A DNA stretch of 64,000 nt, taken from positions 95,679 to 159,678 of the forward strand of contig CAVQMO010000015.1 in the NCBI GenBank assembly GCA_963713605.1, given 5' to 3'. Numbering within the stretch: the stretch's first letter is position 1; each line of letters begins with the position of its first letter. The translations under genes and the position numbers were made by a program. The notes beneath the pieces are model-generated. The model worked only from the letters and a program-made list of their open reading frames with translations. It made no database searches and was not told the origin of the DNA. Source of the stretch: an uncultured Nitrososphaerales archaeon. GTDB taxonomy: Archaea > Thermoproteota > Nitrososphaeria > Nitrososphaerales > Nitrososphaeraceae. Positions 8,307 to 46,706 of the stretch are shown here, in pieces.

Positions 8307-9063
8307 GGATCTTCTTTTACTGGCAGTCAATACTAATTACTAAAATTCGTAATATTACGAATATCTCCTTCAAATTAGTAAAGCATTTAAGAAAGAATGT
8401 TTTGGAATATCTTCAGAGTAGGGATAGGGCTATTCTCTAACCCTTTGACAGGGTATAAGATCTCTTATGATAATTAAGCACATATATATAATGTGTGATT
8501 TTGGAATATAATATGGTGTGGAGAGACAGGAGCCGTTTTGTTCTTTTGTGCCATGATTTATTTTGCCTGTAAGATAACTAAGTTCCGGAATACCTTTTAT
8601 GCAATTGCTTAGACTCTCTCTGAGTTGTAACAACCGATAACTTAATGGGACAACTGCTTGACTTAGGTATGGCGACCTGCTTACTGAGTCCACTTGGTCA
8701 TCAGACCTATTCTTACTTGTATTCGTCGTATTGATACTAACTATGTTTAAGAACATATTTCGTGTAATATTCAGCATATACTAGAATAAATCCTTAGGAG
8801 TTGTAGATATGAGCGATCACGATCACTTTGATTCATCTAGTCAACCTGGAAATATTCTTCAATTCGTGTCCTTATTTTTGAGTTAGTTCAGATTAAAATT
8901 GTTTTAGGTCGGAATTAAAGCAGTCACTTTATTTCAAAATTTGAATCATATACCAACCGGATAACTATTTGGATCCTCAAGTTCAATATATCATAAACAG
9001 GCTCATGACTTACGTAGCATTTAGCTAAGATTATAACAAGCATATTTCATTCGTATTCTTGAG

Positions 9064-9195
9064 ATGAAATCTAAAACAGAATATCTAACCTTTAATACTC
9101 CAACAAGACGTGCGTATGTTAATATTACTTCCAATTTGAGAAAAATAGTCGAAGAAAGCGGAATAAAGGAAGGACCTTGTTTGGTAAATGGCTAG
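9064..9195 (+). pseudogene. yjbQ: 5' half of host yjbQ (UPF0047) interrupted by an integrated element
   Basis: Translates [42 protein letters not shown] then G-stop; homology to 9456-9875 ends at TTTGGTAAATG. Confidence 0.9.
9180..9190 (+). repeat. attL core TTTGGTAAATG
   Basis: Identical to 50244-50254; coincides with the yjbQ breakpoint. Confidence 0.85.
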
Positions 9196-9455
9196 TTATG
9201 CATCGCTTTACTTGTTTTCCAGCACAAGCAAGTTATCATGACACCAGTTAAAAACAATAGCTCAAGGGCAGGAGTTCAATCCTCTAACTGCGAGGCGTTA
9301 AAAATTAAGATTTATCTCTTGTAATAAATTATGTGCTCAAACGGAGACACAGCATTCATCATGTTAAAAGCAAATTTGTGATTAAATAAGAGATAAATTG
9401 ATTTGAATAAAATTAGGCTAAGATTATAACAGACCTTATCATTGACTTAGACATA

Positions 9456-9875
9456 ATGAAATCCAAAACAGAATATCTAACCTTTAATACTCCTACAAGA
9501 CGCGCATTTGTCAACATCACTCCGAATGTAAGGAGAATAGTTGAAGAAAGTGGAACAAAGGAAGGTTTTTGTTTGGTAGCTGCTATGCATATTACAGCTA
9601 GTGTTTTTATTAATGATAACGAAAGCGGACTGCATCAAGATTTTGATAAATGGTTAGAAAAATTGGCACCCCATGATCCGACAGATCAGTATGAACACAA
9701 TGAAACAGGGGAAGATAACGCTGATGCACACTTAAAACGACAGATAATGGGTCGAGAAGTTGTAGTTGCGATTACAAATGGAAAACTAGATTTTGGCCCG
9801 TGGGAACAAATATTTTACGGAGAATTTGACGGCAGGAGAAATAAAAGAGTGATAGTGAAGGTAATTGGTGAGTAG
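9456..9875 (+). CDS. yjbQ: YjbQ / UPF0047 secondary thiamine-phosphate synthase family protein, element-borne full copy
   Basis: [32 protein letters not shown] motifs; upstream GCTAAGATTATAACA (9417-9431) also precedes the 5' fragment (9024-9038). Confidence 0.93.
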
Positions 9876-10139
9876 AAAACCTAGGACAGACCTTCAGATA
9901 TCTAAGAGTACTGAGTAAACCTAGGTTTGCTTGTCTTGACTGACTTCAAGCCTAGCCTTTCTACTAAATCATCAAGAAATATTGTCGATGTTTGCAGTTA
10001 TTTGGCGAGAGAGAAGATGATCTAAAGCCAGTCAGACATTGACGAAGAAGGGTAGGAGTTATTGGGCCTATGTTGATAGACGAGCTGATTCAACAAAGAA
10101 CAAGAGGAGAGAGTCCCAACAGGTACTTCTATGCTACTA

Positions 10140-10457
10140 CTAATGATTATTGTTTCTCTTCCTTTTTAGTTCTACCAACACTTCATCAAGATATCGTTTG
10201 ATGTCATCATCATCGATCGACGTCCTTATCCCCGTTTTGTCCTCCATGTAGTCCTTCGTCTTTTTGGAGAATCTTAATACCCTCCTCTGTATTTCTTGTT
10301 CCATTTCAGCGGTTCCGATAGCATCCAGAAATTGTTGTGATTCTTTGAATGCTACTTGTCTGATAGTTCGACGCAATCGGGCGTCTTCAGACACAGATAA
10401 TGCAGAGGAATAGATACCCAGATAAAGCAAGTATGATGCTAATCCTACGAAGCACAC
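10140..10457 (-). pseudogene. C-terminal fragment of a multicopy Nitrososphaera membrane protein family
   Basis: Begins abruptly in a TM helix; GIYSSA.SVS.D..LR..I, IGTAEMEQEI, D.K.YL.EVL pattern recalled from this family. Confidence 0.5.
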
Positions 10458-10654
10458 AGTGACAAGACCGAATGGGGGGTTGAAGCATTGAAATTCATTT
10501 CTCCAACCTCAGTCATTTGATATAATCCACGAGTATGATTATATTCAATCCAGTCCATGTCTATGAGAAATTCCACAATACCATTGATAAACCGGTTGTC
10601 ATTATCGAACTCTTCTACTAAACCTTCAACACTTCGACCGTCAACAAGTTTCAC
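10445..10654 (-). CDS. Small winged-helix-like hypothetical protein
   Basis: ...FINGIVEFLIDMDWIEY...YQMTEVG resembles a wHTH wing; similar in plan to 49453-49698. Confidence 0.4.
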   Translation of the reverse strand: MKLVDGRSVEGLVEEFDNDNRFINGIVEFLIDMDWIEYNHTRGLYQMTEVGEMNFNASTPHSVLSLCAS

Positions 10655-11185
10655 TAAAACATGCTTTGCTAATTCTAAAGCAATTGAAGTATTGATCCGA
10701 GTATTATATTCATCTATTGCCTATCATCTTGCCCACCATTGTTATGGTATACAATTCCATCGGATTTAATTATATGATTATTAGTAACACTTAAGACTGC
10801 TGGTGTAAGATTTCAACTAATATCCAATTTACGACATTAATTATAGCATATTGACTCCCATGGTTCATGATAACATGTAAATGGTCATAATCTTAACTTT
10901 TTACTGTCAAAAGACAGTGGTTGATGGGCGGGGCTACCAACTTGATCGCTCATGGGTTGAGATTGGACATTGCCATTTAATAATAAGAAATATTGAATAA
11001 AAGTATTATAAGTGTCGCCAGACCTGGGTTAGACGATAAAATTGTTTTTAAAAAATTTGTTGTAAAAAATGGCAGCAGACTAATACTTGCTGCCGCCAAC
11101 TTTATCGAGGTAATGTACGTTAAAGAGATTCTATTGTCGATGAACTAGATAATATTTATTTATGATAATAATGTCTTGCTCAAAG

Positions 11186-11317
11186 CTAACCATCGGCAAA
11201 ACCAGCATTACGCAATTTTTTGTCTTCTCTTTCGGCACTTCGATGTTCATCAAGAGCTTCAATAGTACTGAAAATGGCGCCACATTCTTCGCATGTCAAA
11301 GGCTCACTCGAACCCAT
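11186..11317 (-). CDS. 43-aa C2H2-like zinc-finger microprotein (not in ORF track)
   Basis: MGSSEPLTCEECGAIFSTIEALDEHRSAEREDKKLRNAGFADG; TTTAAATA box ~25 nt upstream. Confidence 0.7.
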   Translation of the reverse strand: MGSSEPLTCEECGAIFSTIEALDEHRSAEREDKKLRNAGFADG

Positions 11318-11451
11318 ATTCCACTTTTTCAAACATAATATTTAAACACTGACAATCTATTTGCTCAGTTCTTATTGGTCGAAGCAAGCATATGTTTGAT
11401 TATAATTATGATCATTTAGATCTTAAAAAAAGAAAAATAGGGTGGTTTGAG

Positions 11452-12046
11452 TATCAGTGTTCCGAACCCAATATTCCAGAAGCAGATAGTGTTTCGACAA
11501 CTTTCTTCACTATTATTTCTACTATTGCTTCGTCATCTTCTTCATCAATTGTGCTCTTCCCATCGTTACCATCATTCGAACCCAATGTATCGATAGACTC
11601 TTGTCAGTCTTCATTATTATCATTTGAATCTGATGTCTCAAGCGTATCTCCAGTAGTTGTTGTCTCATCATCTTGCTCGTTACTCGAACTCTGTACTCCA
11701 TCTTCATCATTAGATTCTGACGTTCCAACCAAGTCTTCAATGGTGTCAACCTTTTGCTCGTCGTTTGTGCTTTGTCCATCATTTTCTTCATGTCCGTCAG
11801 TTGAATCTGTGTCTTATACTTTGCTGGATGGTGTGTCTTGTCCGACTTCATCATCATTTGATGTCTCAGCATCGTCTTCGTCTATGGCATTATCATCTTG
11901 TTCTTCAGTTGCAGTTTCTCCGTCGCTAACTGGCAGTTGACCTTCTGAGTCGCCATCAATTGTACTGCACTATCATCATCATTATCTGAATTTGAGGTGC
12001 TAGTAGAGTCTTCATCATCTTGGTCTTCCCTTGTATATTTTGCCAT
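11452..12046 (-). pseudogene. Highly acidic low-complexity (D/E/S/T-rich) protein with frameshift and in-frame stops
   Basis: Minus-strand frame reads MAKYTREDQDDEDSTS...DDEEAIVEIIV; the Ser-rich + strand ORF 11392-11940 is its shadow; limits approximate. Confidence 0.55.
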
Positions 12047-12321
12047 TATACCATGAATATTGGAATTAATTTAATAAAAGAACTTCTAATACAAATTTAT
12101 TAATGGCTCATATCAAATGACGGATGTTATCAGACTAAAAGTTAATGCTTCTAAGATATCATATGATAATTAAAACGATATAAAATCACCGAAATAAAAT
12201 ACTCATTCTAAAATTTGATCCATTTTTCATGATAAACATGTTCTAAAAATTTAGAACAATACTGTCATAAGACTCGATCAAAACTTTAAATCTTTCACTT
12301 TAATTTGATATACTATATGCG

Positions 12322-12546
12322 ATGGGACCGGAAGAAAGAGAAAGACAGCTAGACGATCTGAGAAAGGAGATTGGTGGCAGACTTAATCCAGACGACGAGC
12401 AGGTGAAGGCTAGGATGAAAGATCATTATCAGCAGCAATTTAAGCGATTGATGACGCTAAAGCAGCACACGAAAGAGGTGATTCCTCAAATGCGATGTGG
12501 CATGAAAGGCTGGCTAGTGAAGTACATGATATTATCAAATTACTAG
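12322..12546 (+). CDS. Hypothetical protein
   Basis: 74-aa ATG ORF with TTTAAA box about 30 nt upstream. Confidence 0.4.
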   Translation: MGPEERERQLDDLRKEIGGRLNPDDEQVKARMKDHYQQQFKRLMTLKQHTKEVIPQMRCGMKGWLVKYMILSNY

Positions 12547-12652
12547 AATAATCAAGAGTTATTTTTGCGGATTTTATTCAGGGGCTTGAAGGTATATGCT
12601 GTTATTCGATAAGCTTATTATCAAGGACTATTTCATCCACCTGTAGTCATTA

Positions 12653-13255
12653 TTGTCAGGTCTCTTAACCACAGAACGACTAAAGAGCTTTAGTGACTCT
12701 GTTCTTCTTGTCGCCATTACAATACTGGCATATAATCTCGTCCCTCCATCAATTATGAATGGTGAAGTTAATCCAGATGAAATGAAGGATTTTTTTTATA
12801 ACTTATACGGGCTCATAAGTAGCTTCATAGTGATTTCTGTTTTCTGGATTTTTTCCATGTATTTTTTTGACTATCTAAAGTATCCAACTGAAATCATTAC
12901 ACTGATCTTTGTAACCTTTTTTGTATTGATACTGATAACTCCAATTACTACCGTTGGAGAATTACAATATAGAAGGTGGGAAGCGGTAGCGGTCTTGTCA
13001 TTATTACAAGTTTTTAATTCGATGATGTTGATGTTATTATGGTGGCTTTTGGGAAAAAGTAAAAATCTACAAATTAAAGAACTCGACAATGGTACTAAGA
13101 AAAGAATGTACATTAGACTAGCTGTCATTCCATCTCTTTACATCATTTCGATTGGTCTGTCTTTCTTTAATTTTAACGTGGCAGTTATTTTCCCGAAAAA
13201 AAAGATAATGATTATTCGCTACTGTACTACGACTGTACCTACTAAGAATGGATGA
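12653..13255 (+). CDS. TMEM175 (DUF1211) family K+ channel-like membrane protein, C-terminus possibly truncated
   Basis: RLKSFSDSVLLVAITIL signature; SFIVISVFW; five to six TM helices. Confidence 0.8.
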   Translation: MSGLLTTERLKSFSDSVLLVAITILAYNLVPPSIMNGEVNPDEMKDFFYNLYGLISSFIVISVFWIFSMYFFDYLKYPTEIITLIFVTFFVLILITPITTVGELQYRRWEAVAVLSLLQVFNSMMLMLLWWLLGKSKNLQIKELDNGTKKRMYIRLAVIPSLYIISIGLSFFNFNVAVIFPKKKIMIIRYCTTTVPTKNG

Positions 13256-13695
13256 AGTGTGCAGAAGTAGGTATATTTTCCTGGTTCAGTGGGCATTGTT
13301 ATGGGTTTACTTTGTTGATTTGCAGCAACATAACCTGAATCGAATTTACCGTCTGGAGTTGCTGTATCGGGGTTTCCAGAAGTAGCAGTATGAAGTGCAT
13401 TGTCTTTATTATCCCAAATTATTGTGCTACCAGGTGATACAGTTACAGTATCTGGTTCATAACCCCCTCCACTAGTCTTTGCTACTGAGCCTGCTGGCAT
13501 TGCCACGGTAACTTGGCCTCCGCTAGCCCCGGTTGCATTTGTAGCATTTGTAGCATTGGAGCCTTGTGCAAAAGCATGAGATGGACCTATGAAAACGAGT
13601 GATACAATCGCTGCTATGAATATCGCACTACACCCTGACTGCACTAGAGCCCTTTTATTTTTAAGGGTTGGTAATAACATGTCAGCTTGTTTCAT
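13219..13695 (-). CDS. Secreted plastocyanin/cupredoxin-family blue copper protein
   Basis: Signal peptide, WDNKDNALHTATSG and YTYFCTLHPFLVG type 1 Cu motifs. Confidence 0.9.
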   Translation of the reverse strand: MKQADMLLPTLKNKRALVQSGCSAIFIAAIVSLVFIGPSHAFAQGSNATNATNATGASGGQVTVAMPAGSVAKTSGGGYEPDTVTVSPGSTIIWDNKDNALHTATSGNPDTATPDGKFDSGYVAANQQSKPITMPTEPGKYTYFCTLHPFLVGTVVVQ

Positions 13696-14532
13696 TCATG
13701 CAAGTAATAGATATTCCGAAACAATGTTAACTTGTATTAAAAAAGGGAAGGCAGACGACAATGGTAAACATATGAAGCACTATTTTGTTCGTCGTCTGCC
13801 CTGAATTTTAGTATCAGCTTGTATTCATTATACTACTCATTCCTCTAAGTCTGATCCCTTCCTAACTCGGCGAAGGGTAAGAGGTGACTTGTGACCTGTG
13901 AAAATAAACTCATGTCTATCAACCAGGACCTCTATTATTACTATTCCAAGCCCACAGATCTTTTTTTATAATTTATTGTGTAAGTGGCCGCTGAATTACA
14001 GACATTCGCATGGTCTGCGGCGACGACCTGCAGATTTAATGTCCATCTTCCTTCCAGGCCGTCCTACCTTTTCATTATTAGGAGTAACCTAGTTGCATTT
14101 TTCCTAATCTCTGCCAAGTATTAAGTACCGATTGTGAGTATTTTGAGATGCCGTTAATCCCTATCGTGTGACCTTTTTGTGCGCTGGTTCCATCGACGGG
14201 TCACGAGCTGTCCGTGAGCCAACGACGGGCGGCTAGCATTAATGGTTAGGTTTCTTCTCTAGCCCTCCTACCTTGATATAGCCGCATTTCAGAAACCCTA
14301 AACTTCTCCATGTATGGGACAGACTTCTTACATAAGCAATTCTAAAATCCGTTACCATCTGCGAATTCTATGATTGTGTCCTAATGTCAAATGATCGCCT
14401 ACCTATTTTTAGTAGAATAACCAAGTTCCGGAATGTCTCTTAAAATAAAATGTAAAGGAATAGCACGGCAACTTAGTTCTGACAGAACCAAACAACCTGC
14501 ACAAGGTTAGGGCAGCGGCGGCTAAAACGCTC

Positions 14533-14694
14533 ATGAGATTAGACAAATTCTCTGGTCGCCGTACCTTCTTACTAATACTGATTGCGAAAGAAATTGACAG
14601 AGGGTATGAAAAGATATTGGCAAGAAGGAAGAGGAAAAAGTTTAAGATAGTAGAATTCTGGAACGGTAAAGCGGTAACACTACACCTTCCGTAA
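14533..14694 (+). CDS. Possible 53-aa basic protein (not in ORF track)
   Basis: MRLDKFSGRR...ARRKRKKFKIVEFWNGKAVTLHLP, followed directly by a T-rich tract. Confidence 0.3.
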   Translation: MRLDKFSGRRTFLLILIAKEIDRGYEKILARRKRKKFKIVEFWNGKAVTLHLP

Positions 14695-15229
14695 CCTTTT
14701 TTTCCTCTTTCTGTTTTACACCTAACCCCCGTACGCCTCCTTGGGTAGTTCTCTTATCTCTCAGAGATATAATCTCTCTATCTTGCGTATTCAATCAGTA
14801 CACAGCCACAAATAACTGAAGAATTAAAGAATATCTCTAACATTATTGCAGAAAGTAAGGTCACAAGATGATAAATCATAACGATAGAGTTATTCATTCG
14901 TAAACCTATTGGGAATAAAGAGCTGATGATGAAGGGAGATTGAACGCTTAATTAGTAAATAATTAGTAGGATGCGAGGAACACTGACTGTTACTATTTGT
15001 ATACATTCATACTATATTAAGACATAAATCTATTATCAAATCAATTGTGGAAGATTAACTCCTTTCCAACCTTGATCGTAAATACCTTGGTAATGTTTTG
15101 TCAGTACGTATTATGACAGTATTATTACCATTAATCATTTTTGATTGAATCGAGATTCTCAAATATGGAAGCATATGATAAAACTGTTGATTCGCTATTT
15201 TAGTATGTGTCATCTAGTCCTGCGGTAAT

Positions 15230-15420
15230 TCAGTTGTAATTCAAATGTGATTTCACAGTTTTAATCAGGTCATCCATACCTATTGGTTTTCTAATAAAGC
15301 ATTCTCCTTCCTGTAAATCTGGAAATATTCTTTTGAACTCGTTGTAGTATTCTTCATAGGCAGTCATAAAACATATCTTGGTTTTATCACCAATTTGTCT
15401 GATCTTTCCATATTCCTTGG
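15230..15420 (-). pseudogene. C-terminal fragment of a response-regulator receiver domain
   Basis: KIRQIGDKTKICFMTAYE...CFIRKPIGMDDLIKTV; N-terminal half absent. Confidence 0.7.
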
Positions 15421-15864
15421 ACCTTTTAAAAACATTGGATCCCTTCAAATTCGATATTATCTGACAACTGTAATCGCATTTTAGTTGTTCCAAGTTGTGA
15501 TATGCCACGTCATGAGAAATGTTATCGTAACAGCACAATAATGTCGATATGACAATATCTTTAGTGTGGAATGCTTCTGAGATCTGCCACAGCAAATAAG
15601 AATAGATAATTAAAGAAGAGGTAGGTTGGTGTGTTGTAGGGTCTGAGATATTATGGAAACCACACACCACACTAACCCAACCGAATATGCGTTGATTTCA
15701 ATATTTGCATACTCAACTTAATTATTAACGATAAAGATTGAATATGGACGACTTCAGTTAATAATGGCGCGGCATTAGTATTCAATCCGTTATCGAATTA
15801 TTGCGATTAGACCCTCAGAAATTTCATTCTTTCTATTACAACCGGTCGACAATACAACCAGAAA

Positions 15865-16197
15865 ATGATGAAGAACCAGCTATTGGTCGAAGCTGAGAAG
15901 CTTTATGAAAGGGTGCTTGAAAACATCACAAATAACGTAGTTAGTGATAATATATTGTCCACGTCATCAGTTGTGCAAAAAGAATCGGAAGAACAGAATT
16001 CGGATGATAAGCGAACGTCGTCAGCTTACTCATTTGTCAAAGAAGAGCGTACTTTGTTAGATCCTGAAGACAGAGAGATAGAAAGAAATTCGTTCGTAGA
16101 ACGTCCTGACGTACTAGCACTGGTCATGGAATGGTATTTTATCCATACAAAGGACAAGCATGGCATCCTAATTTTGATGCCCCAGTCTAAAACCTGA
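15865..16197 (+). CDS. Hypothetical protein
   Basis: 110-aa ORF, no recognised motif. Confidence 0.4.
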   Translation: MMKNQLLVEAEKLYERVLENITNNVVSDNILSTSSVVQKESEEQNSDDKRTSSAYSFVKEERTLLDPEDREIERNSFVERPDVLALVMEWYFIHTKDKHGILILMPQSKT

Positions 16198-16296
16198 ATT
16201 CAGATCTGCTCTCTTGTGGAACGCTGTATATTAGGTGTCGTTATATTCCTGTAGCATTAACTTACATAATATATAACATATACACGACTATACACT

Positions 16297-16878
16297 ATGT
16301 ATATATTAGTAATAGCAACATTGCTGCTTCTACCAATAGGAAATGTCCTAGCTAGTTCTGATTCTGACTTTACAGGAGAGAATTTCAAAGCATACAAACC
16401 TGATAGACCAGCTATAAACGAAGATTTTCATCCTGATAGAAGCTGCATGTTTGATGCATATCAGCTAAAATGTATTCCAGGTGCAGAACAAGATTGTCAT
16501 GAAGCAGGTTTTGGCAATAATGATGATTCAACTTGCTTCCCATATGAGGTCATTATTGGTGGATGTTCTGACGGCTATCATAGTACAGATGATGATGAAA
16601 CTGGTCAATGCTATCCTAACGAAGAGGGATGTCTGAATGATTACATTTTGCTAACAGGTAGGCCTGACAAAGGCGACCGATGTGCTGAAATGAATTACGA
16701 ATGCAATTCTGAGTCTCTGCAACGTTTTTCTTGCAGTCCAGAATTCAAGATAAATTGCGAAGATAACCAGAAACATTATCTGTGTAATGGACAAAGAGGT
16801 ATTAATGGTACTATCTACTGCGATTTGCTTCCACATAATGTGACGAGCATGTGTTTGAATAAAGACCTGGTAAAATAG
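16297..16878 (+). CDS. Secreted Cys-rich protein
   Basis: Signal peptide; SCMFD..QLKC, CFP, C.DGYH..DDDETGQC shared with 47832-49184. Confidence 0.75.
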   Translation: MYILVIATLLLLPIGNVLASSDSDFTGENFKAYKPDRPAINEDFHPDRSCMFDAYQLKCIPGAEQDCHEAGFGNNDDSTCFPYEVIIGGCSDGYHSTDDDETGQCYPNEEGCLNDYILLTGRPDKGDRCAEMNYECNSESLQRFSCSPEFKINCEDNQKHYLCNGQRGINGTIYCDLLPHNVTSMCLNKDLVK

Positions 16879-17312
16879 ATTGATAAAAATCTCTTTTTTT
16901 AACTTCTTTATGTGGCTCAAATTAATGTGGGAGGAGGGGGCACTAGTAAACTCCTCATTATTAGGTTGATCTGCACAGCAACTCCAATTTCCATTATATT
17001 TATGTATCCCGTCTTCCTGAAGGACACTATCCAAATTTATTACTATTAAATTTCTCGGCGACTTTGGCATCTCTTTAGGCCATGCTAACATACATACATA
17101 ATTTCATCAAAAATATCCTAGTGTGAAATTTGTTGTTTGTCTATACCCCCTATTTCGCCGGGCTTGTTGATACACATTCTTAGTGATATGGTAGCAAGGG
17201 AGAACTTGGTTTGTTCTTAATTATTTACTGGGGATATCCAGTACTTTACCTCATATGATTCAATGTCTGAGCCAAGGAAAATTTAATACAGTACCAATTT
17301 CGACTGTAATTA

Positions 17313-17960
17313 TTGGTTTTTAAAACCTGGTTCTCATGGCTTCGTGGTAGTGACAAAATAATAATCGGTAACTTGGAAAAACAGGGTGAAATACTTGTTA
17401 AAGCAACTTCGGCTCTGGTTACACTAATTTCTAATTATGACAAGAACGAACTAACTCAAAGAGCATCGGCTATTAAGGAATTAGAGCATGAAGGAGATAG
17501 ACTTACTCATGAACTTTTTACTTTGATTTCAGCTACATTTGTAACGCCATTGGATCGTGAAGATATCTCTGGACTTGCTAGTTCCATAGACGAGGTTTTA
17601 GATTTTACTGACGGAGTGGCGGACAGGTTTTTGCTATTCAAAATCAATAGGCCTTCTGCCTATATGACAGATCTCTCGAAGACGCTCTTTTTGGCATCAC
17701 AGGAGATCTATCATGCTCTCTGCATCCTAAGCAAAATAAAGAATTCACATAAGCTGATGGAATATTGTAATAACATAAAGAAGTATGAACACGAAGCAGA
17801 TAGCACTTACCGAAATGCAATCGCTGAATTGTTTGAGGTAAATAGTAATCCAATCGAGGTGATCAAACTTAAGGAAATCTATGAAAACCTAGAAGAATCG
17901 GTTGACAAGTGCCAAGATGTAGCAGATGTAGTGGAGGATATTGCACTCAAGTACGGATGA
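17313..17960 (+). CDS. DUF47 (PhoU-like) phosphate transport regulator
   Basis: IKELEHEGD, TFVTPLDREDI, YEHEAD, KEIYENLE..VDKC.DVA. Confidence 0.92.
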   Translation: MVFKTWFSWLRGSDKIIIGNLEKQGEILVKATSALVTLISNYDKNELTQRASAIKELEHEGDRLTHELFTLISATFVTPLDREDISGLASSIDEVLDFTDGVADRFLLFKINRPSAYMTDLSKTLFLASQEIYHALCILSKIKNSHKLMEYCNNIKKYEHEADSTYRNAIAELFEVNSNPIEVIKLKEIYENLEESVDKCQDVADVVEDIALKYG

Positions 17961-18061
17961 AAGACGACGAAAGAATAGAAAGCATGTGAGTGTGTAGAAA
18001 GCTCACTATCAACCGAAATTGTTAAGTTAATCAGACACTACAAATATCGAAGATTTTCTAC

Positions 18062-19079
18062 ATGCTCGAGGGAGCCAATGAATACGCAATATTGACATTT
18101 GCAGCAATAGGTACCGCTTTGTTTTTTGACTTTGTGAATGGATTCCATGACTCTGCTAATGCAATAGCCACTGTTGTAGGAACCCGTGTCCTCAAACCGC
18201 TTCACGCAGTCATTATAGCCGCATTTGCAAACTTTGTTGGGCCGTTCATTTTTGGAACAGCAATAGCTACAACAGTGGGTAGTGGGATAATAGAACCACA
18301 ATACTCTACTGTAGATGTTATCCTTGCTGGTCTGATAGGTGCAATAATCTGGGATTTAGTCACTTGGTATTTTGGTCTCCCTTCTTCGAGCAGTCATGCG
18401 CTTATTGGAGGTCTAGTTGGATCCGCGTTGATCGCCGGAGGTGGGGGAGCAATAATAGTTCCAGGCGTTGAGAAAGTTCTGATATTTATGATTCTATCAC
18501 CAGTAGCAGGCTTTGCGATAGCATTTGTTCTGGCTATGATTATCATATATTTCTTTAAAGACTCAAAACCACTACTCATCAATCGAGTCTTTGGGAAGCT
18601 TCAGATCGTTTCAAGTACGTTTCTTTTCGTTAACCCATGGAGCGAATGACGGACAAAAGACTATGGGGGTCATAACAGCGTTACTTATTGCCGGAGGGTT
18701 TATGGGCTCAGAGGATTTTGTAGTTCCCACATGGGTTATAATCAGTGCCGGAGCAGCAATATCAGCTGGAACACTCTTGGGGGGATGGCGAATAGTAAAA
18801 ACCATGGCGTTCCGTATTACCGAACTTAAGCCCTATCAAGGGTTTTGCGCTGAGACTGGTGGAGGAGTGATCCTCTCGGTAATGGCCGGTTTAGGAATTC
18901 CCGTAAGTACTACTCAAGCAATCTCAGGTGCTATTATCGGAGTTGGGTCAACAAGAAGGCTTTCAGCAGTTAGATGGGGTATCGGAAAGCGAATTGTATT
19001 CGCATGGCTTGTCACTATTCCTGCTAGCGCGGTAATTGCATCTATTGTAATCATAATTATTCAAGGTATCCTCTATTAG
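18062..19079 (+). CDS. pit: PiT family inorganic phosphate transporter, one frameshift in a T-rich tract at ~18620
   Basis: NGFHDSANAIAT, GLPSSSSHALIG, HGANDGQK, GIPVSTTQ motifs over two ORFs. Confidence 0.9.
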
Positions 19080-19269
19080 TAACATTGGGGTTTATTTTCA
19101 ATATTTGTTTAACTCGAAGTCATTAATTATTTGACAGTACAGATAAAAAGAAAGAGGACTAGGCATCAATTCATTTTTTTTGACTATTACAACAGGAGTA
19201 GGAGCCTCTTTCTTTGCTAAAGATACATTTTCCCATCCATGAATTATCAATGAATCTAATTGCGCTTGC

Positions 19270-19569
19270 TGCAATGTGACCATGACTTGGAATTAATAGT
19301 TCACAGTTAGACAAGTCGAAACCCAATACTCCTGCATTGTGACTAGCTGCAAATGTATCTAAACCTGAATCAAACAATGGGCTATGTTCAGTTCCATTTA
19401 CTTCTAGTTACTTAGCTGCACAGAAGCCATGCTCTGCGATAAATGGATGTACAAACCAATTTTCATTTAGAGAAGGACGAAATGCAACTTTGGTATTCGG
19501 TAATAGTATGTCCACACTATTATCAACTAAGCATGTAATTTCTGCGCTTTCAATATCTTTCAGGGGCAT
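19270..19569 (-). pseudogene. N-terminal fragment of an MBL-fold metallohydrolase
   Basis: MPLKDIESAEITCLVDN, AEHGF, LFDSG, SHGH; broken frame, truncated after SHGH. Confidence 0.7.
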
Positions 19570-19813
19570 ATCTTCAATGTTAACATCTCTTTTTGTTCTT
19601 GTCTTTCCATTTCAATCACTTCGGATGATATTTTTTCATGTATCATTACATACGGTATAGAATATATGGTGATAAATTATGGACGGGACTGCAACACCCG
19701 TATTCTACACAAATTTAGTAGCAGATGTTACATCCAACATTGCTATGGTTAGATCATTTGTAGCTAACCTTAATTGAAGCTCCCAACTATGGCAAAGTTG
19801 GTAGAGTAATTAC

Positions 19814-20002
19814 TTGGATGCCAAAGATGTAAGAATATTCTGTGAAATAGCATTCAAGGGTCTGGATTACGATTCTTTCACGGATAGACGAGTTAGCCCA
19901 TTAGCTATCCCAAGGAAGCTTGGATTAGATGAGAAGACCGTTCGGATAAGAGTAAAAAAGATGGAGGACGACGATGATACAATTCAGGCGGGGCAAATAT
20001 AA
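19814..20002 (+). pseudogene. AsnC/Lrp-like wHTH regulator N-terminal fragment
   Basis: MDAKDVRIFCE...KLGLDEKTVRIRVKKME. Confidence 0.6.
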
Positions 20003-20612
20003 AGAAAAATCTAAAAATATATTGGTGCTTAATGTAATTCATCAGTTGATTGCAATCTATCGATAACATTATTAGTACGGTAAAGTTCCATCTCCATACC
20101 GTAGTATAGATAAGTTCCCATTCTTAAAAAAAACGAAAGATTACTTAGTTCCAACTGCACCCTGTTCATATTCATCACCCGTCTCTCCTGCACCGGCAGT
20201 TCCCTTTGTCATACCGCTTCTCCTTGCTCTTTCGGCTGCTTCTTCTGGATTTGTACGAACTTGTTCGGGTTCTGTAATTCGGAGAGTAATAATCTCAATA
20301 TTTTTTAGATAGCCATATGAAACCTAGTAATATCTTACTTAACAACAGAATAGATGCGCCGGAATAAGGAATGTATCTTTGATTGCGATATTACTGATTT
20401 TGAATATATAAAGTTCAAGATAAAGGGTTCCATAATGGAATAGTATCCTTCCTCTACTACATTTAATTCCATTCAAAGAAATAAATAATATGGCATGGCA
20501 ATGAATTGTGTTTTTTTTGTTGGAAGAACGTCTAAGGCAAATTGGGTAAGGCTACTGATATTCTTTTATCTATAAATAGTTTGTAAACCACTTTCAATGA
20601 TGTACTATATAT

Positions 20613-22337
20613 ATGTCTGTAGATAAGACTGCACCCAAAATTCAGAGGGCTCTTGTTTTACAGGGTGGTGGTGCGCTTGGAGCATATGAAGCTGGTGTGC
20701 TTAACATACTATCTAGGAATCTCAGAATAGAAGACAAAGAAAATGGAGAAGAAAACAGGTTGCTCTTTGATGTTATCGCAGGGACATCTATAGGTGCGAT
20801 GAATGGTGCAATATTGGTAAGTCAATATTTGGAAACTAAAAGCTGGGAAAAAGCAACGGAAGAGCTTGAAAACTTTTGGACGGACCAAGTATCTTTAAAA
20901 TCTCTTGATATTGGTGAATTGAGTAAACCTTGGTATGACGAATGGGTGAAGAAAAATCCAAAAGCTGCCTCTGAAGAGGCTGCCAGGAGATACTATTCAG
21001 TTAAAAAATTGCTTCTGAATCAAGTGCATAATAATATGTATTACTTTCTAGGGTATGTCAAAGACGATAGGTTCTTTGATACACTACAGCTTCACACTCA
21101 ACTTCCAGCATCTTGCTTCAATAACGACTGGCTCTTGCATAGCAACAAGCCACTACGAGAAAGTATAGAGAAATATGCTAGATTTCCAATATTAACTGAT
21201 TTCAAGAATAAGCAACCTCGTCTACTTGTGTGTAGTGTGGATGCCGCCGAAGGTGTAACAGTAACTTTTGATAGCTATCCTAAGGAAGATGGCTCTAGAA
21301 AGTCAGAATATGGTAATTATAATAATGAAAGTGGATATGAAAATGTGATTGACTACAGTGATGGGGTCACTATAGATCATGTTATGGCGAGCGGTACATT
21401 ACCAGAATTCTATAACTATGCAGAAGTGTCTATTCATACAACAAATAAACAAAAGACTAAAGATCCAGCATCTCTGCCTATAATTAATAAAAGAAATAAT
21501 AATATTCGTTACTTTTGGGATGGAGGTTTACTTAGCAGTACCCCATTAAGAGAACTCTTGCATGCCCATCAAGAATATTGGAAAAACGTAGAAAATCTAG
21601 ATGAAATTCCAGAGTTGGATGTGTATATAGTTAATGTGCATCCCTCCAAGATCGACATTGGTAAGATTCCCATGGATCATAATGGAGTTAAGGATAGACA
21701 AAATGATATAATATATGCAGACAGAAATTCGCTTTATGACGAGAACATGACACGCCTAATTGGTGATTATGCTAATTTTGTTACCGAAATAAAAGATCTT
21801 CTTGAAGATGCTATCTGCAAAGTTAATGATGAAAAAGATAAAGGTGTTTTGAAGAGAAAACTTAACGATATTTTAGTAACAAATACTTCTAATATTGATA
21901 GAAAATGTGGAGCAAGAGATTACGAGGATCTTATAACGGGACAAATTAAGTTGAACAAGGTGATACGGATCGAGCGTGCAAATTATATTAATAGCATCTA
22001 TGGTAAAACAGGTGATCTAACATTTGAAACAATACATAAACTAATAAAAGAGGGAGAATGTGATGCATGGCTCTCACTTATTCAGCAATATATTCAAGAT
22101 ATAGAAGTAAGTGCTGACGCTGTCCATATAAGAGATAGTCTAATAAAAAAATTGCAAGTCATCATCAAGAACTTGGGAGATAATGACTACGAAGTAAATA
22201 ATTCTCATACACATCGTGAACTAACAAAATTTATTAACCAAATTAAAAAGAATAAAGAAATCATCGATGGCTTGAAAACAAATCAATCTACTAAACTTAT
22301 GAATTTGACAGGTAGATTTAGAACCAGTTTAGATTAA
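20613..22337 (+). CDS. Patatin-like phospholipase
   Basis: QGGGALGAY, GTSIG nucleophile, WDGG catalytic Asp. Confidence 0.92.
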   Translation: MSVDKTAPKIQRALVLQGGGALGAYEAGVLNILSRNLRIEDKENGEENRLLFDVIAGTSIGAMNGAILVSQYLETKSWEKATEELENFWTDQVSLKSLDIGELSKPWYDEWVKKNPKAASEEAARRYYSVKKLLLNQVHNNMYYFLGYVKDDRFFDTLQLHTQLPASCFNNDWLLHSNKPLRESIEKYARFPILTDFKNKQPRLLVCSVDAAEGVTVTFDSYPKEDGSRKSEYGNYNNESGYENVIDYSDGVTIDHVMASGTLPEFYNYAEVSIHTTNKQKTKDPASLPIINKRNNNIRYFWDGGLLSSTPLRELLHAHQEYWKNVENLDEIPELDVYIVNVHPSKIDIGKIPMDHNGVKDRQNDIIYADRNSLYDENMTRLIGDYANFVTEIKDLLEDAICKVNDEKDKGVLKRKLNDILVTNTSNIDRKCGARDYEDLITGQIKLNKVIRIERANYINSIYGKTGDLTFETIHKLIKEGECDAWLSLIQQYIQDIEVSADAVHIRDSLIKKLQVIIKNLGDNDYEVNNSHTHRELTKFINQIKKNKEIIDGLKTNQSTKLMNLTGRFRTSLD

Positions 22338-22679
22338 GTATTGAAAGAGAAGGAAATCTGAATTCATGTTTGAGAATATCTTGGAATGTGTTTACTTAGA
22401 GCCTATCCTAAAAATACTGTCTTCATACACTTTTAGCTCTTAGTCTGGAGTTTAAATACTAGAACCTTGAAAGAAATGATGTTGAATGTTTCTTACATTA
22501 TAAAAAATGGACTCAATCGATCCAATCAGGTCAGGAGTAAGAATTGGTTCGTAAGCCTGTATGGAGGTTAGAACTATTAACAAGATTGTCGTTTTATCTT
22601 TAGATCGTCCTCTTTGGAACCATAATAATATTACAAAGGCAACGCCGCACAATTCATTATAGAACGTCATGGCTTCATT

Positions 22680-24101
22680 ATGGTAATCAATAAACCTTTT
22701 AGAATTGTGATACTCGGCGCTGGCTACGCTGGAATGTTTTTAGCTATCAATCTATATCAATCATTAAAAGAAATGAGTAAAGGTGATAGAAAAGGACAGA
22801 ACAGTTCAGCCGTTGCCGAAATTATTCTTATTGATAGAAATTCATTTCATCAGTTGTTACAAGAAATCCATCTAGTTGCTGCAGGTTATAGGACCGCAGA
22901 ACAAATAAGCATTCCAATAACCTCTTTGATAAATAGGACAGAAATCAGATTCATCCAGTCAAATGTGAAAGAGATACATGCAGGCGAAAACAAAGTTATT
23001 CTAGATGGATCTGTAATTGATTATGACCTAGTCGTAATTTGTTTAGGATCCACTACAAAGTATTTTGGTATTGAAGGAGCTATGGCCAATACTCTCCCTT
23101 TCCGGTCAATCGATGATGCGACATTAGTTCACAACAAGATTCAATCCTTCCTGTTATCTCAGAGATCTTATATCGAGGATAAAATGAAGATAAGTGACGA
23201 CGATAAGAAGAGGAGCAATGACGGTAATAATATCATTATAGTCGGTGGGGGAGCAACTGGAGTAAGTCTAGGCGGAGCGATTGCCGATTTGTTAATAGAT
23301 CAAACAAAACCAAAAGAGCGACCTGACAGTCTTCCGCCTTTCAAAATTAGTTTGAACGTTACTATAGTCGAAGCGTTATCAGATATTCTTACAGGTTGGA
23401 ATTCAGAATTAGTTAGCAATTCAAGAACAATTTTAGGGTCAAAAGGCGTAAGGATTTTGACTAGTTCAGTAGTATCCAAGATAGAACAAGATAATCTTAT
23501 TCTCAAAGATGGTTCAATAATCACCTCATCTCTTATCATTTGGACAGCGGGCGTAAAAGGCTATGAAATCAAAGTGACACCACAAATAGACAAAACTAAG
23601 GACGGTAGAATTATTGTGAATAGATTTTGCCAGATCGACAATTATCCCAACATTTTTGTAATTGGCGATATTGCCGCTGTAAAGGATAACCTCGGAAAAA
23701 TATATCCACCTATTGCACAGATAGCGGTACGAGAGGCCAAGTATTTAGCAGATATTATACCTAAATGTTTTAGCAAACTCGATCATGAAAGTACTAATAT
23801 CAAGAATCTCATAATACTGGAGGATCAAGATGTCTTCGAATACGATATCAAAGTACAAATTATTTCATTAGGAGCTGATGATTATGTCGGCATATTTGGT
23901 AAGCATGTAATAAGTGGTAATCTTGCTAAAATGATCGACGAATTTGGCAAGCTTACTTATGTAAGATCTCTTAAAACTAGAGGAGAAGACATATCTTCAA
24001 ACCTGTATGAGAATAATCTGGTGTCAAAGATGATTGCGGGTTTCTGCTTTGCAGGTTTCGCTTTTGCAAAGTGGATAGGAGTAAAAGAACTCAAGGAATA
24101 A
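22680..24101 (+). CDS. FAD-dependent oxidoreductase, type II NADH dehydrogenase-like
   Basis: GAGYAG, GGGATG, IWTAGVK, FVIGDIA, PPIAQIA motifs; C-terminal hydrophobic tail. Confidence 0.85.
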   Translation: MVINKPFRIVILGAGYAGMFLAINLYQSLKEMSKGDRKGQNSSAVAEIILIDRNSFHQLLQEIHLVAAGYRTAEQISIPITSLINRTEIRFIQSNVKEIHAGENKVILDGSVIDYDLVVICLGSTTKYFGIEGAMANTLPFRSIDDATLVHNKIQSFLLSQRSYIEDKMKISDDDKKRSNDGNNIIIVGGGATGVSLGGAIADLLIDQTKPKERPDSLPPFKISLNVTIVEALSDILTGWNSELVSNSRTILGSKGVRILTSSVVSKIEQDNLILKDGSIITSSLIIWTAGVKGYEIKVTPQIDKTKDGRIIVNRFCQIDNYPNIFVIGDIAAVKDNLGKIYPPIAQIAVREAKYLADIIPKCFSKLDHESTNIKNLIILEDQDVFEYDIKVQIISLGADDYVGIFGKHVISGNLAKMIDEFGKLTYVRSLKTRGEDISSNLYENNLVSKMIAGFCFAGFAFAKWIGVKELKE

Positions 24102-24287
24102 CAATTCTTCCGATTTAATTGCCTAATACACAACGGAATCGATTTGGTCATTGGCATGCTGGGAAATGTATCAACAAGTCTACAGGATTCGGTTGTCAGC
24201 TTCCTCTTCATTTGTCTCTGGATGACCCAAAGTTATGCAACTCTATGACTTCATGTGAGCAAGCCAGTGCTGGAAGTAGGATAGCAT

Positions 24288-24602
24288 ATGGGGGGTTGTT
24301 ATGATAGAAATGATAATCCACGTAGTTATTGTGATGACTATGCAATAGAGGAAGCAAAAAAGGGTTTGGGTTGGTTCTGTGAATCTGTCTGTAATAACTA
24401 TAAAGAGATAACGGCTAAACATGAAGGCTGTGACAATTTCATAAGATGTGAAGATTCGCCTCCTCCACGTTTTTGTGTAAAGAAGGAACCTTCTGTAGCA
24501 TTAGTCTGTGATCTAAGTCGTAAAACTAACAGAGATTATTGTTTCTCAGACGAAGATGACTGTCTACCTCATTTAGATGGAAGTAGATGTAAATCTAATT
24601 AA
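24288..24602 (+). CDS. Cys-rich protein, probably a fragment of a secreted protein
   Basis: 104 aa with many Cys; no signal peptide; upstream frames also Cys-rich. Confidence 0.45.
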   Translation: MGGCYDRNDNPRSYCDDYAIEEAKKGLGWFCESVCNNYKEITAKHEGCDNFIRCEDSPPPRFCVKKEPSVALVCDLSRKTNRDYCFSDEDDCLPHLDGSRCKSN

Positions 24603-24721
24603 AACTCAAACACAGGTGTCACAAGGTATTTCCACCGGAAATGAGTATTTTGAACGACATCTCTCATGAAGAATAGAGCATGATTTGAACGCTATATCAA
24701 GAGATATCTGTTTAAGATTTA

Positions 24722-24765
24722 GAGCCCAAAATTTATGTCAAAAGTGGTTCACATACCCTTGGGCC
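24722..24765 (+). repeat. 44-bp direct repeat, copy 1, with internal inverted ends GCCCAA/TTGGGC
   Basis: 42/44 identical to 26334-26377. Confidence 0.9.
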
Positions 24766-24891
24766 CAATGTAATATTGCTTCTCAAATAGGATTCTCTAA
24801 CCAGAAGGAAAGAGAAACCAGATTGAGCACATAACACTTAGACTAGTTATTATTCTGGCCATCAAATTATCGGCTTTCGCTGGAAGAAGAG

Positions 24892-26175
24892 TTAGAACCC
24901 GTATTTGTAACTTCTTGAAGTCATATTACCAATAGTGGGAGAAACAAAGGAATGTGAAAGACCTGAATGTGATTCAAGCCATGCATAAAGATCTGCTAAA
25001 ACATAAGGTTCAATTGGTCCAATTTCAGTGAACCACTGAGGTGAGGGATAGAAGAGGTGTCCCAAATTAGGATAAGTTATCAACATGTGGTCAGGGTGAT
25101 TTACGTCAGTTAGCCTTTGTTGTAGGAGAAATGCTTGCTGAACTGTAGTTTGACTATCATTTTCTCCATTGAGTATTAGGATGTCTGTAAAGTTAGAGAT
25201 ATTGCCAATGATGCTTAAAGTGGGTATCAGATTAAGCTCCCATCTTAACCATACAGGACAGCCTCTAATATTGTTGCATTTGGACAGATTAAAAGCCGTC
25301 TGATTTTCATAATACTTTATCAATTCAGGTCTGATTTGTTTCTGAATACTTACATCATCAGTAGTACCAAATTTCTCGACTAGGCTGTCAGTTATAGCCT
25401 TGGTATTATTAGAATCCAAAAGGGAAGATGATACCAAATAAAACCCTAACAAAGGATCCTTTGCTATTTGCTGTATCGATATCATTCCGGTGTGATTTTT
25501 ATCCAGAACTTGCGTAGCGTACTCTAATGGGTGATCTACCACTTGGTAGCGCAGGATATCTCCGACAAGGTTCTGGGCTGGAGCGCCCATAAGTATTAAA
25601 TTCTTCACCTTGGTTGAATTATCTATTGCTAACCTCGGAGCAATAATTGTACCTTCACTATGACCAATTACACTTATCCTTTGAGGATCTACTTCAGGTT
25701 GTACTGCTAGAATATTCAAAGCATTCCCTGCATCATGAATTAGATCATCGACTGTAGCATTTCCCCATACATTCTGATCAGTTATGTGGTTTGCACCTAC
25801 GCCTCTCTTATCATATCTGAGTACTGCAAAACCTCTTTCTGATAGATATTGAGTGATTTGCCAATACGGTTTAGGAACATCATTGTGAACATCTGATCCC
25901 GTAGTTTCATTCTTATTAAGAGCACCAGAACCATGAATGAGCAGCACAGCAGGAAATGGTCCATTTCCCTCTGCGGGAAGTGTTAATTGAGCATTGGTCT
26001 TTACTCCATTTCCTAAATCTATTATGAGATCTCTATATTTTATTGTTGGAATGTATTGTTGAGCTAGCGCATGGTCTTGTTGTTTAAAAAAAGTAGTAGA
26101 CAAACAAGATAATCCAAGCGTACCTATCAAAAATAATCCCAAAGTTAGGTTCACACATGTTGTACAATAGCACAA
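24892..26175 (-). CDS. Secreted alpha/beta hydrolase (serine aminopeptidase S33-like)
   Basis: LIHGSG, RYDKRG, GHSEG nucleophile, GEND, YPNLGHLF. Confidence 0.9.
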   Translation of the reverse strand: MCYCTTCVNLTLGLFLIGTLGLSCLSTTFFKQQDHALAQQYIPTIKYRDLIIDLGNGVKTNAQLTLPAEGNGPFPAVLLIHGSGALNKNETTGSDVHNDVPKPYWQITQYLSERGFAVLRYDKRGVGANHITDQNVWGNATVDDLIHDAGNALNILAVQPEVDPQRISVIGHSEGTIIAPRLAIDNSTKVKNLILMGAPAQNLVGDILRYQVVDHPLEYATQVLDKNHTGMISIQQIAKDPLLGFYLVSSSLLDSNNTKAITDSLVEKFGTTDDVSIQKQIRPELIKYYENQTAFNLSKCNNIRGCPVWLRWELNLIPTLSIIGNISNFTDILILNGENDSQTTVQQAFLLQQRLTDVNHPDHMLITYPNLGHLFYPSPQWFTEIGPIEPYVLADLYAWLESHSGLSHSFVSPTIGNMTSRSYKYGF

Positions 26176-26333
26176 TTATAATAAAAGGAACTGATGCTTG
26201 TATTTGAGGATTTATGTTTAAAATATTGACTATAGGCTTCTCTATATTCCAGATTACTTACGTGAATTAGTCAGGACAAATAGTAAATCTAGATCAAAAA
26301 TAAGAACAGTCCCGGTCTTTAGAAATTGTGGAT

Positions 26334-26377
26334 GAGCCCAAAATTTAAGTCAAAAATGGTTCACATACCCTTGGGCC
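26334..26377 (+). repeat. 44-bp direct repeat, copy 2
   Basis: GAGCCCAAAATTTAAGTCAAAAATGGTTCACATACCCTTGGGCC. Confidence 0.9.
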
Positions 26378-26956
26378 ATTAGAGATCTAAAACTATCATT
26401 CTTACAAATTGATTCAACTTTTCGAGTCTATCGTAATGGGCAAAGATGGAAAACATGATTATTATGTAGGAATAGACATCGTATAGTAGTATAAACCAAG
26501 AATTAAGACTAAGACTTTAGCATGCCCTATTAAGTGAACTGTATTTTGGTGTATATTTCTTCTTCTCTTAAAGCATTCTTAATCATGAGTTACTAGTGAG
26601 TCGTTAACTCTGGTAGTGTTCACATTCATTATCTCTTCTTTAATCATTCATATTATGCATGTAAGAGAACATCCAACGAGACCCCGGACCAGCGGATATC
26701 AAATTTTATGGTTTAGAAAGACAAGATATGTCACTGGGAAAGAGAAATCAAAGCTGACATAGAATGGAGATAACTTGACTAGCCTAATATTCGCAAAAGT
26801 GAAGTCAAAATTATAACCATCTTTTTTATTGGGCAAGTAGCAGACAGCTGCATCAAATGTATTCAATGTAATCATTTTTATGTTTTAGTTTCATTCTAAT
26901 TTATTAAGACCAACCAGCAGCTGTAAGTCAAACGCGGAAAAGCTGGGGTAGATGAG

Positions 26957-27385
26957 ATGGATAATATTCAAGAATTAACATATAATCATAGTAATAATAA
27001 ATTTGCAACAGAAAAGAAAACAATAATGATATGTGAAGATGAACCAGACGTGCTATTATCATTTGAGCTGGTACTCAAGTCAATGTATAACATTATTCCA
27101 GTTAGTTCTGGTAAAGATTGTATAATTAAGTACAAAGAAGAAAATAACCGGGGAAATAAAATAAATCTCATACTATTAGATTACAGATTGGGTGATATGT
27201 TTGGCGACTCTGTTGCTCGTACAATAAAACAGTATAACGAAACTAGAATTATTCTAATCTCAGCATTTGATCTAGATCATGCATTGTTGAAAGAATTAGA
27301 AGATGGAGATTACATAGCAAAATACGTGGAAAAACCGATTTATGCTAATCGACTTATAGATCTAGTATCTGATACGATAAGCTAA
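26957..27385 (+). CDS. Standalone response-regulator receiver protein
   Basis: ICEDEPD, LLDYRL, ISAF, EKP; close paralog of 47389-47802. Confidence 0.9.
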   Translation: MDNIQELTYNHSNNKFATEKKTIMICEDEPDVLLSFELVLKSMYNIIPVSSGKDCIIKYKEENNRGNKINLILLDYRLGDMFGDSVARTIKQYNETRIILISAFDLDHALLKELEDGDYIAKYVEKPIYANRLIDLVSDTIS

Positions 27386-27387
27386 GA

Positions 27388-27801
27388 TTGCTTGTCTATG
27401 CAATAACAACTAAAGTTGCATGGTCCAATGTGATGTCAAGCTTACTTCATTCGCGTTTGAAGATTTTCGAGCTTCCGCTTCTCAGACTGGCCCAGACAAT
27501 AAATCAACATTACATGGTTATGGCAACTAGTAACTTTACAAAAGATGCTGGTTTTAAAGAAAGCAAGGAGGGATTGAGTACAATCCCTTATTATGGTAAT
27601 GGTAGTGTAGGCGGTGTTAATACTACTATGTCGGACACTTTTCAGGTTCTAATTAGACATAACTTGGGAGAAAATTGCTCTTATGTTTGGAATAAAATGT
27701 TCACTCAATTTTTTACACGTCTACGAAACTCCATAGAATACGAGATAGAATATGATGAGACAATGATTTCTATCAGATTAAAAGTAAAGCAAGGCGAATA
27801 A
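27388..27801 (+). CDS. Hypothetical protein, C-terminus (IRHNLGENCS..W) resembles a Nitrososphaera family; possibly a fragment
   Basis: 137-aa ORF with TTG start. Confidence 0.35.
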   Translation: MLVYAITTKVAWSNVMSSLLHSRLKIFELPLLRLAQTINQHYMVMATSNFTKDAGFKESKEGLSTIPYYGNGSVGGVNTTMSDTFQVLIRHNLGENCSYVWNKMFTQFFTRLRNSIEYEIEYDETMISIRLKVKQGE

Positions 27802-27897
27802 ATCGATAGACAGATTAATGCCAGAACATCAAAGACAACCTGAATGCATCCAACAGATCATCATGACTCGTTGCATCTTTAGTAATAGTACTAAGTG

Positions 27898-28479
27898 TCA
27901 TCCAGATGGACTAAATAAAGCAAGACCACAGTTGCTGCAATATTTGGGCTTACTATAGTAATTGTTACCACATCTGGGGCATTTGTATATACTCTTAGAC
28001 TCTTCAAGTAGAGTCTGGCGTAGACTCTTCATCATGATAACGAGCCCGTTAAAATCTTCTTCGGTCAGTTTTTCGATTCCCTCGACTTTGTCTTTTATTG
28101 TTGCCTTCGTCTCATTTGCTAATACTCTAGCCTTACCTTCGGCCTTTGGCTTTAATCTTTCCTGCATACGCTGAACTCTATCCTGCGAGATTATGCCTAC
28201 TAAGGTTACGACGATACCAATTCCTGCAAACATCACTATTACCGCTACTATTCTACCGAGCGGCGTTATTGGAGTATAATCGCCATATCCAACAGTTGTC
28301 ATCGTAGTTGCCGACCACCAAAGGGCGTCACCTAGGTTAGTTATATTCGCTCCTGGGTTGTTATATTCGGCCAGATACTCAGCAATAGCACCGAGAATTA
28401 TGACTGATAAAGTTAGGATTAGCGCACTAAGGATTGTGTTCTTTTCTTGTAGAAATGTCTTGAAGCGGGTACTTTTCAT
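27898..28479 (-). CDS. Two-TM potassium channel with C-terminal zinc ribbon
   Basis: DALWWS..TMTTVGYGD filter; CPRC-x9-CSNC tail. Confidence 0.9.
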   Translation of the reverse strand: MKSTRFKTFLQEKNTILSALILTLSVIILGAIAEYLAEYNNPGANITNLGDALWWSATTMTTVGYGDYTPITPLGRIVAVIVMFAGIGIVVTLVGIISQDRVQRMQERLKPKAEGKARVLANETKATIKDKVEGIEKLTEEDFNGLVIMMKSLRQTLLEESKSIYKCPRCGNNYYSKPKYCSNCGLALFSPSG

Positions 28480-46681: not shown

Positions 46682-46706
46682 TTTTTAAAGTGGCAACTTC
46701 TTTAGT

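Follow-up and report, generated by a model that had tools for sequence, protein, structure and literature searches.

The window, by which we mean the whole stretch of 64,000 nucleotides analysed from an uncultured Nitrososphaerales archaeon, an ammonia oxidiser of soil, contains an island of about 41 kb that interrupts the host yjbQ in the middle of the gene at an 11-bp repeat. Three pieces of yjbQ are present: a 5′ half and a 3′ half on the two sides of the island, and a complete gene within it (Table 1). An exact 11-mer, TTTGGTAAATG, marks the two break points, at 9180 and 50244, and is found nowhere else in the window. Joining the host halves at TTTGGTAAATG gives an in-frame UPF0047 protein of 139 amino acids; attL and attR are thus direct repeats which, when joined, restore the target in frame. 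Neither junction by itself rebuilds the gene. The frame that enters attL meets a stop two codons past the core, and the 3′ half has no start of its own. The substitution L38P in the host 5′ half is likely a sign of decay.

Table 1. Features of the split yjbQ locus and the inserted island (window coordinates).
Feature	Position	Strand	Remarks
Host yjbQ promoter 15-mer (presumably BRE/TATA-like)	9024..9038	+	25 nt before ATG; motif also precedes yjbQ in relatives
Host yjbQ 5′ half, codons 1-42, downstream of thyX	9064..9190	+	Carries L38P
attL core TTTGGTAAATG	9180..9190	+	Hexamer GTAAAT at 9184-9189
Element end inside attL	9191..9209	+	10/12 inverted repeat between 9198-9209 and 50218-50229; other host sites in the genus have related ends
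Promoter 15-mer of element-borne yjbQ	9417..9431	+	24 nt before ATG
Complete element-borne yjbQ, 139 aa, UPF0047	9456..9875	+	About 86% DNA identity to host gene; purifying selection
Altered core in element copy, TTTGGTAGCTG	9572..9582	+	GTAAAT to GTAGCT; N42A
Cargo: cupredoxin, phosphate transporter with DUF47, patatin, oxidoreductases, response regulators, ion channel, cyclase, unknown ORFs	9876..50011		Family scan of ORFs
Remnant N-terminus of tyrosine-integrase gene	50012..50176	-	62% identical to intact 404-aa relative
Element end inside attR, AAAACGTTGCAT	50218..50229	+	Common to related integrase elements
attR core TTTGGTAAATG	50244..50254	+	Exact repeat of attL core
Host yjbQ 3′ half, codons 40-139 and stop	50244..50547	+	Joins 5′ half in frame

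A tyrosine-integrase gene starts just inside attR with only about 55 N-terminal codons left, a truncation that the original prediction for this locus did not mention. Its intact 404-aa relative matches integrase families weakly, under the Pfam cut-offs (PF00589, 21.3 bits; cut-off 27.1), and an N-terminal integrase piece on contig C1 of genome G000 reaches the cut-off of PF13495. The start of that contig (positions 1-4000, L207) repeats window positions 50010-51033 at 96.8%; there, beside the same attR, the integrase is longer and frameshifted, and further ORFs are present. Neither a second attL in G000 nor a matching attL on G000:C1 was found, and the contig start is read as a strain variant or as an assembly branch or mis-join. 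Having lost most of its integrase, the window element is probably unable to move without help in trans. At 49893-50010, where the integrase breaks off, lies a repeat of about 120 bp; similar pieces occur at G000:C15:6304 and C12:95030, and several genomes of the genus match its final 60 bases.

Among the 53 window ORFs scanned, no virion or conjugation families were detected in the island. The window has no tRNA genes, and searches with element ends and of viral contigs yielded no free attP. Two response-regulator genes inside the island (26957-27385 and 47389-47802) form an inverted pair of 400 nt with 76% identity. The genes for a phosphate transporter, a binding protein and a short-chain dehydrogenase are split across frames (18062-19079, 33272-35137 and 45274-46009), reflecting either decay or sequencing indels.

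It had been predicted that a complete yjbQ lies about 265 bp inside attL behind the promoter 15-mer of the host gene, at near-identical spacing. Both statements were borne out: the spacer between attL and the ATG of the ORF at 9456-9875 is 265 nt, and the 15-mer occurs exactly twice in the window, at 9024 and 9417, 25 and 24 nt before the respective start codons (the mean in shuffled sequence was 0.43 at up to two mismatches). The promoter match was rejected as special evidence. The genus and some sister genera have this 15-mer as their usual yjbQ promoter, and it therefore says nothing special about the copy. A scan for sigma-70 promoters, which does not cover archaeal promoters, gave no match.

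The copy and the host gene differ at 59 bases, 42 of them at third codon positions, and in 43 synonymous and 11 non-synonymous codons. After the MHITAS motif four residues are changed in the copy relative to the host (R69K, A74D, K80E and L133I), which agrees with the predicted excess of third-position differences and the predicted number of replacements. Across 77 conserved columns the copy departs only at N42A and L133I. With dS of 0.85 and dN/dS of 0.05 it is not a recent duplicate, and recent duplication within the genome was also rejected on the ground that the promoter lineage is different. From its intact motifs and low dN/dS, the copy appears to work and to replace the broken yjbQ. A search of sequencing runs for this sequence listed none of RNA. 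The same values, and the presence of a copy at all seven attL sites described below, uphold the claim that the element brought a whole gene and not a repair fragment; complementation by the whole gene is, on these sequence comparisons, well supported.

The layout is real and recurrent. All seven yjbQ attL sites found carry a yjbQ copy inside them on the same strand, with spacers of 176-1146 nt. These sites are the window, one further genome (G007) among the 14 examined from the genus, and five metagenome loci (L078, L080, L081, L082 and L083). The pattern used for the metagenome scan was a yjbQ 5′ half cut after GTAAATG, so GTAAATG was demanded of the host half in those five; of seven matches, two were due to chance and were dropped (L077 and L079), and each of the five real ones has a copy inside attL. 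Five of the seven copies are complete to the stop codon, and those of G007 and L080 are cut by contig ends. The seven cases are not seven independent events: the host species number about three, the element ends fall into two types and so do the promoters, L081 and L082 are near-identical, and the host halves of G007, L078, L080 and L083 look like one species. The same element end, promoter end and part of the spacer are found in the window and in L078, which are from different host species.

Outside the genus the same split was not present among the 150 matches listed of 199, a result that does not depend on the entries from G135, G137 and G255 among them, and nine short-frame yjbQ cases proved to be frameshifts, contig ends, truncations or breaks elsewhere. 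Viral contigs gave two pattern matches, both without att context, and one yjbQ relative at 72%. Two full-length yjbQ genes per genome, with no split, were seen in G069, G073, G093, G112, G117 and G253. Other odd arrangements (L241 on G093:C16, L105, and L240 on G253:C165) include a yjbQ copy that an insert of about 0.8 kb interrupts near codon 46, an entire yjbQ facing a 48-codon fragment in an Omnitrophota genome, and intact and frameshifted copies 10 kb apart.

The function of YjbQ is poorly known. Its repeated replacement hints that it is useful to these ammonia oxidisers. Genome G009, which is 92% complete, shows only a distant paralogue with the query used, and the gene may therefore be dispensable.

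The core of the element-borne gene was predicted to be recoded at 9572-9582, with LVNAMH becoming LVAAMH, and the sequence there is indeed TTTGGTAGCTG, which encodes N42A. None of the seven copies retains GTAAAT; the hexamer reads GTAGCT in the window, GTAGAT in G007, L078, L080 and L083, and GTAAAC in L081 and L082. A changed core in a single case is unremarkable, because raw divergence alone separates copy from host in 84 of the 138 in-frame two-codon windows (and changes a residue in 22 of the 138). The hexamer is kept in 48 of the 54 matches listed from ten genera that were picked for similar codon use, and among the matches listed for genera g14, g5 and g12 it is kept in 0 of 45, 8 of 35 and 4 of 9. 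Synonymous loss of the hexamer, as in L081 and L082, is thus weak evidence, since it is frequent in other genera.

Residue 42 itself is nearly always Asn. In other genera of the family, a hand count found Asn in 141 of the 150 matches listed (of 175 pattern matches in all), a result that is independent of two Asn entries from G137 and G203. Seven of the nine remaining entries are not at the yjbQ coordinates listed, and Asp, Ala, His and Tyr do not occur among the 150 listed. At 80 distant loci the residue is Asn in 76, Ser in two and Ala in two, and the solved aq_2013 protein has Ser. Among the 120 nearest protein clusters, a set ranked by likeness to the Ala42 query and lacking genomic context, 20 are non-Asn (12 Asp, four His, three Ala and one Tyr), so that this column is 83% Asn, compared with 95% among 100 distant sequences. 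Of the 77 conserved columns only one is more destabilised than column 42, and that one shows mostly a conservative Ile/Leu swap. A search for a role of residue 42 yielded nothing. Within the genus, six of nine unsplit or copy-type yjbQ genes are non-Asn at 42, and one of the nine keeps GTAAAT.

The VAAMH allele is rare, as the original prediction required (three of the 120 nearest clusters and none of the 150 matches listed), but the usual altered allele is VDAMH. Nor is an altered core confined to copies beside a split yjbQ. VDAMH is found at the native thyX locus in G008, G010 and G013, the last on a contig that ends at codon 43, and behind a host-type promoter in G005.

Element ends of the window type are also present at other host sites in the genus. 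A second hot spot is the 3′ end of a gene for a 180-aa protein without clear family (L202; and L224-L229, on G001:C5, G009:C31, G008:C377, G007:C163, G013:C238 and G004:C221). It is occupied in G001, G007 and G013, as well as in G009, where the junction is different; it is apparently empty in G008 and G004, and an attR lies at G007:C71. GTAAAT is common to the occupied, empty and attR forms, and the base after it varies; the hexamer is therefore encoded by the target, and it most likely lies within the strand-exchange overlap. No yjbQ match was found beside the element end at these other sites on the contigs concerned; two of these contigs are short, and genome G001 is 57% complete. On contig C228 of G005 (7389-7407; L170/L179) a window-type element end follows a sequence encoding F-C-L-V-N that resembles the yjbQ site and is not yjbQ. 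The yjbQ of G005 has Asp42, and this insertion is possibly a use of the look-alike site. Matches to the element end with one mismatch outside the genus looked like chance (L168 was left out).

For tyrosine integrases, mismatches in the overlap are typically strongly deleterious, though the integrase of Fionnbharth itself accepts secondary sites in which the overlap is not conserved, according to the available part of one study (PMC10865867). A 7-bp overlap is the convention for archaeal tyrosine recombinases in the portion seen of a review (PMC8371274). By analogy, the integrase would require GTAAAT, and it is likely that the altered core cannot be used by the element's own integrase.

We consider it reasonably probable that a complementing copy lost its core through self-avoidance and that the core-less allele later spread to the chromosome as a by-product. 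A tyrosine-integrase family of one Nitrososphaeraceae genus would recombine at a short overlap containing GTAAAT, at codons 41-42 of yjbQ. The layout of the locus is observed, and the reaction that would produce it destroys the gene. Elements at this site carry a whole yjbQ with its own promoter just inside attL, which would make good the loss. This copy always lacks GTAAAT, and self-avoidance is the likeliest reason. Were the core of the copy intact, excision would leave it in direct orientation with attP at a distance of about 390 bp on the circle. Recombination between the two by the integrase would then be expected to cut off one element end, so that only core-less copies would persist. 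Self-avoidance is the simplest cause of core loss because an intact core in the copy, 392 bp from the element's own site, would be a substrate in cis. Recombination between the copy and a host half may then delete the element and leave a core-less chromosomal allele; the products are observed, and their order is presumed. Such a host would become a non-target as a by-product.

Other explanations were weighed. The original prediction had raised target immunity, in which the core was changed so that the host's only working yjbQ resists a second incoming element. The absence of the core from all seven copies fits this idea, as do the many related elements and integrases in the genus and the chromosomal genes at the native locus that also lack the core. 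An incoming element, however, brings its own copy (in seven of seven cases), and selection for immunity would be weak because a second insertion would be complemented in this way. Self-avoidance predicts the same sequence pattern without that assumption, and immunity as the selected purpose, which we regard as improbable, is less likely than self-avoidance. It is also unlikely that the copy is ordinary cargo and that codon 42 varies neutrally from lineage to lineage with no link to the integrase. In favour of this reading, other genera also have duplicated yjbQ genes, few independent lineages have been seen, and 61% of the two-codon windows differ between copy and host; site 42 tolerates change, since Ala or Ser is found there in four of 80 distant loci and Ser in aq_2013. 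Against neutrality stand the fixed position of the copy just inside attL in seven of seven cases, the lack of a yjbQ match beside the same element end at other sites, and four substitutes (Asp, Ala, His and Tyr) in the nearest clusters set against none in the 150 matches listed from other genera.

The copy might also have arrived after integration as a rescue, by transfer from a relative or through a recombination intermediate, often from hosts with escape alleles. A free attP carrying the copy has not been seen, the Asp42 gene of G008 is wholly flanked by host DNA, and copies and host halves are mosaic at L080 and L083, with modest support. In L080 the 5′ coding part of the copy is host-like, and in L083 the copy clusters with the 3′ half of the window host. 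The trees of the yjbQ 5′ and 3′ parts have few strong branches and are therefore used only as hints. Against later rescue stand the sequences, noted above, that the window and L078 have in common across different host species; these are consistent with carriage on the element, and we give a later arrival little credence.

Some of the altered alleles at native loci look like products of recombination with the element copy, judging from their flanks. In L081, L082 and G010 the promoter is of the element type and the downstream DNA of the host type. G005 combines a host promoter and Asp42 with a separate left-over 3′ fragment that is followed by host-type DNA. The Asp42 gene of G008, with host sequence on both sides, could be a host escape allele. 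The left-over 3′ piece in G008 was not accepted as a clean attR, since it lacks an element end and yjbQ-like sequence continues upstream of the core for about 20 nt; the piece may represent a truncated copy. The altered core of the copies may have either origin, as a site recoded on the element or as a captured host escape allele.

The closest known parallel is tRNA-dependent lysogeny in Fionnbharth and other Cluster L phages. There too, in the part of the report available, a tyrosine integrase acts at a core of about 10 bp, which leaves the target unrestored, and an entire gene carried by the element complements the loss (PMC10865867); in the island this function is deduced from sequence. The phage target is an essential bacterial tRNA whose need was shown by experiment, whereas here an archaeal protein gene is split by a non-viral island, and a changed core in the carried gene was not found in the accessible text of that report (PMC10865867). 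With a protein gene as its target and no phage as the element, the island falls outside that class. Intronless homing by free-standing endonucleases and cleave-and-rescue drives likewise link a selfish element to a version of its target that cannot be attacked. Unlike these, which cut and repair or kill, the island integrates by site-specific recombination. Transposon target immunity in Tn7, Tn3 and Mu is mediated by proteins and protects the neighbourhood of an existing element end regardless of target sequence. The principle here is different, in that the overlap sequence is lost.

Integrated elements of Thaumarchaeota have short att sites (median 17 bp, down to 8) and protein-coding targets, and in the available text 14 protein-gene cases enter the 3′-distal part, with NitEve-E2 supplying a new stop codon (PMC6563490). 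The present island resembles them in host group, short att and type of target, and differs in splitting its gene in the middle and supplying a whole replacement. Neither yjbQ nor UPF0047 is named in four supplements of that paper, and a mid-gene split with whole replacement is not described in the portion seen (PMC6563490). In the tRNA and tmRNA islands of the Islander collection (PMC4383910) and in elements targeting dusA (PMC8409611), as far as the accessible text goes, the target is rebuilt at the junction by a fragment or a new promoter. Those elements and the island alike offset damage to the target; here there is no rebuilding at the junction, where attL runs into a stop, and the element supplies a whole gene separately. 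In Vibrio cholerae yjbQ is an island hotspot, and is named only as such in the part available (PMC12082036). No report of yjbQ as an integration target of this kind, or of a whole protein gene carried as a replacement, was found in a literature search that covered mainly non-subscription papers.

Complementation through an entire gene brought by the element, known from phage tRNAs, is thereby extended to a protein gene of an archaeon. The locus also illustrates how a core as short as 6-11 bp lets elements target the middle of a conserved coding motif. The alleles GTAAAT, GTAGAT, GTAGCT and GTAAAC form a natural series for mapping the overlap of an unstudied thaumarchaeal integrase family. The pattern at residue 42 points to an integrase as a possible driver of substitutions in a host protein. 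More tentatively, and with a good deal of doubt, the integrase may be driving Asp, His, Ala and Tyr at a near-invariant Asn along with host immunity, as a natural integrate-and-rescue form of allele replacement.

A separate substitution was noted close to this site. His45, which lies three codons from the core and is invariant in 100 distant sequences, is replaced by Asn in five of the 120 nearest clusters (P0048, P0055, P0091, P0100 and P0113).
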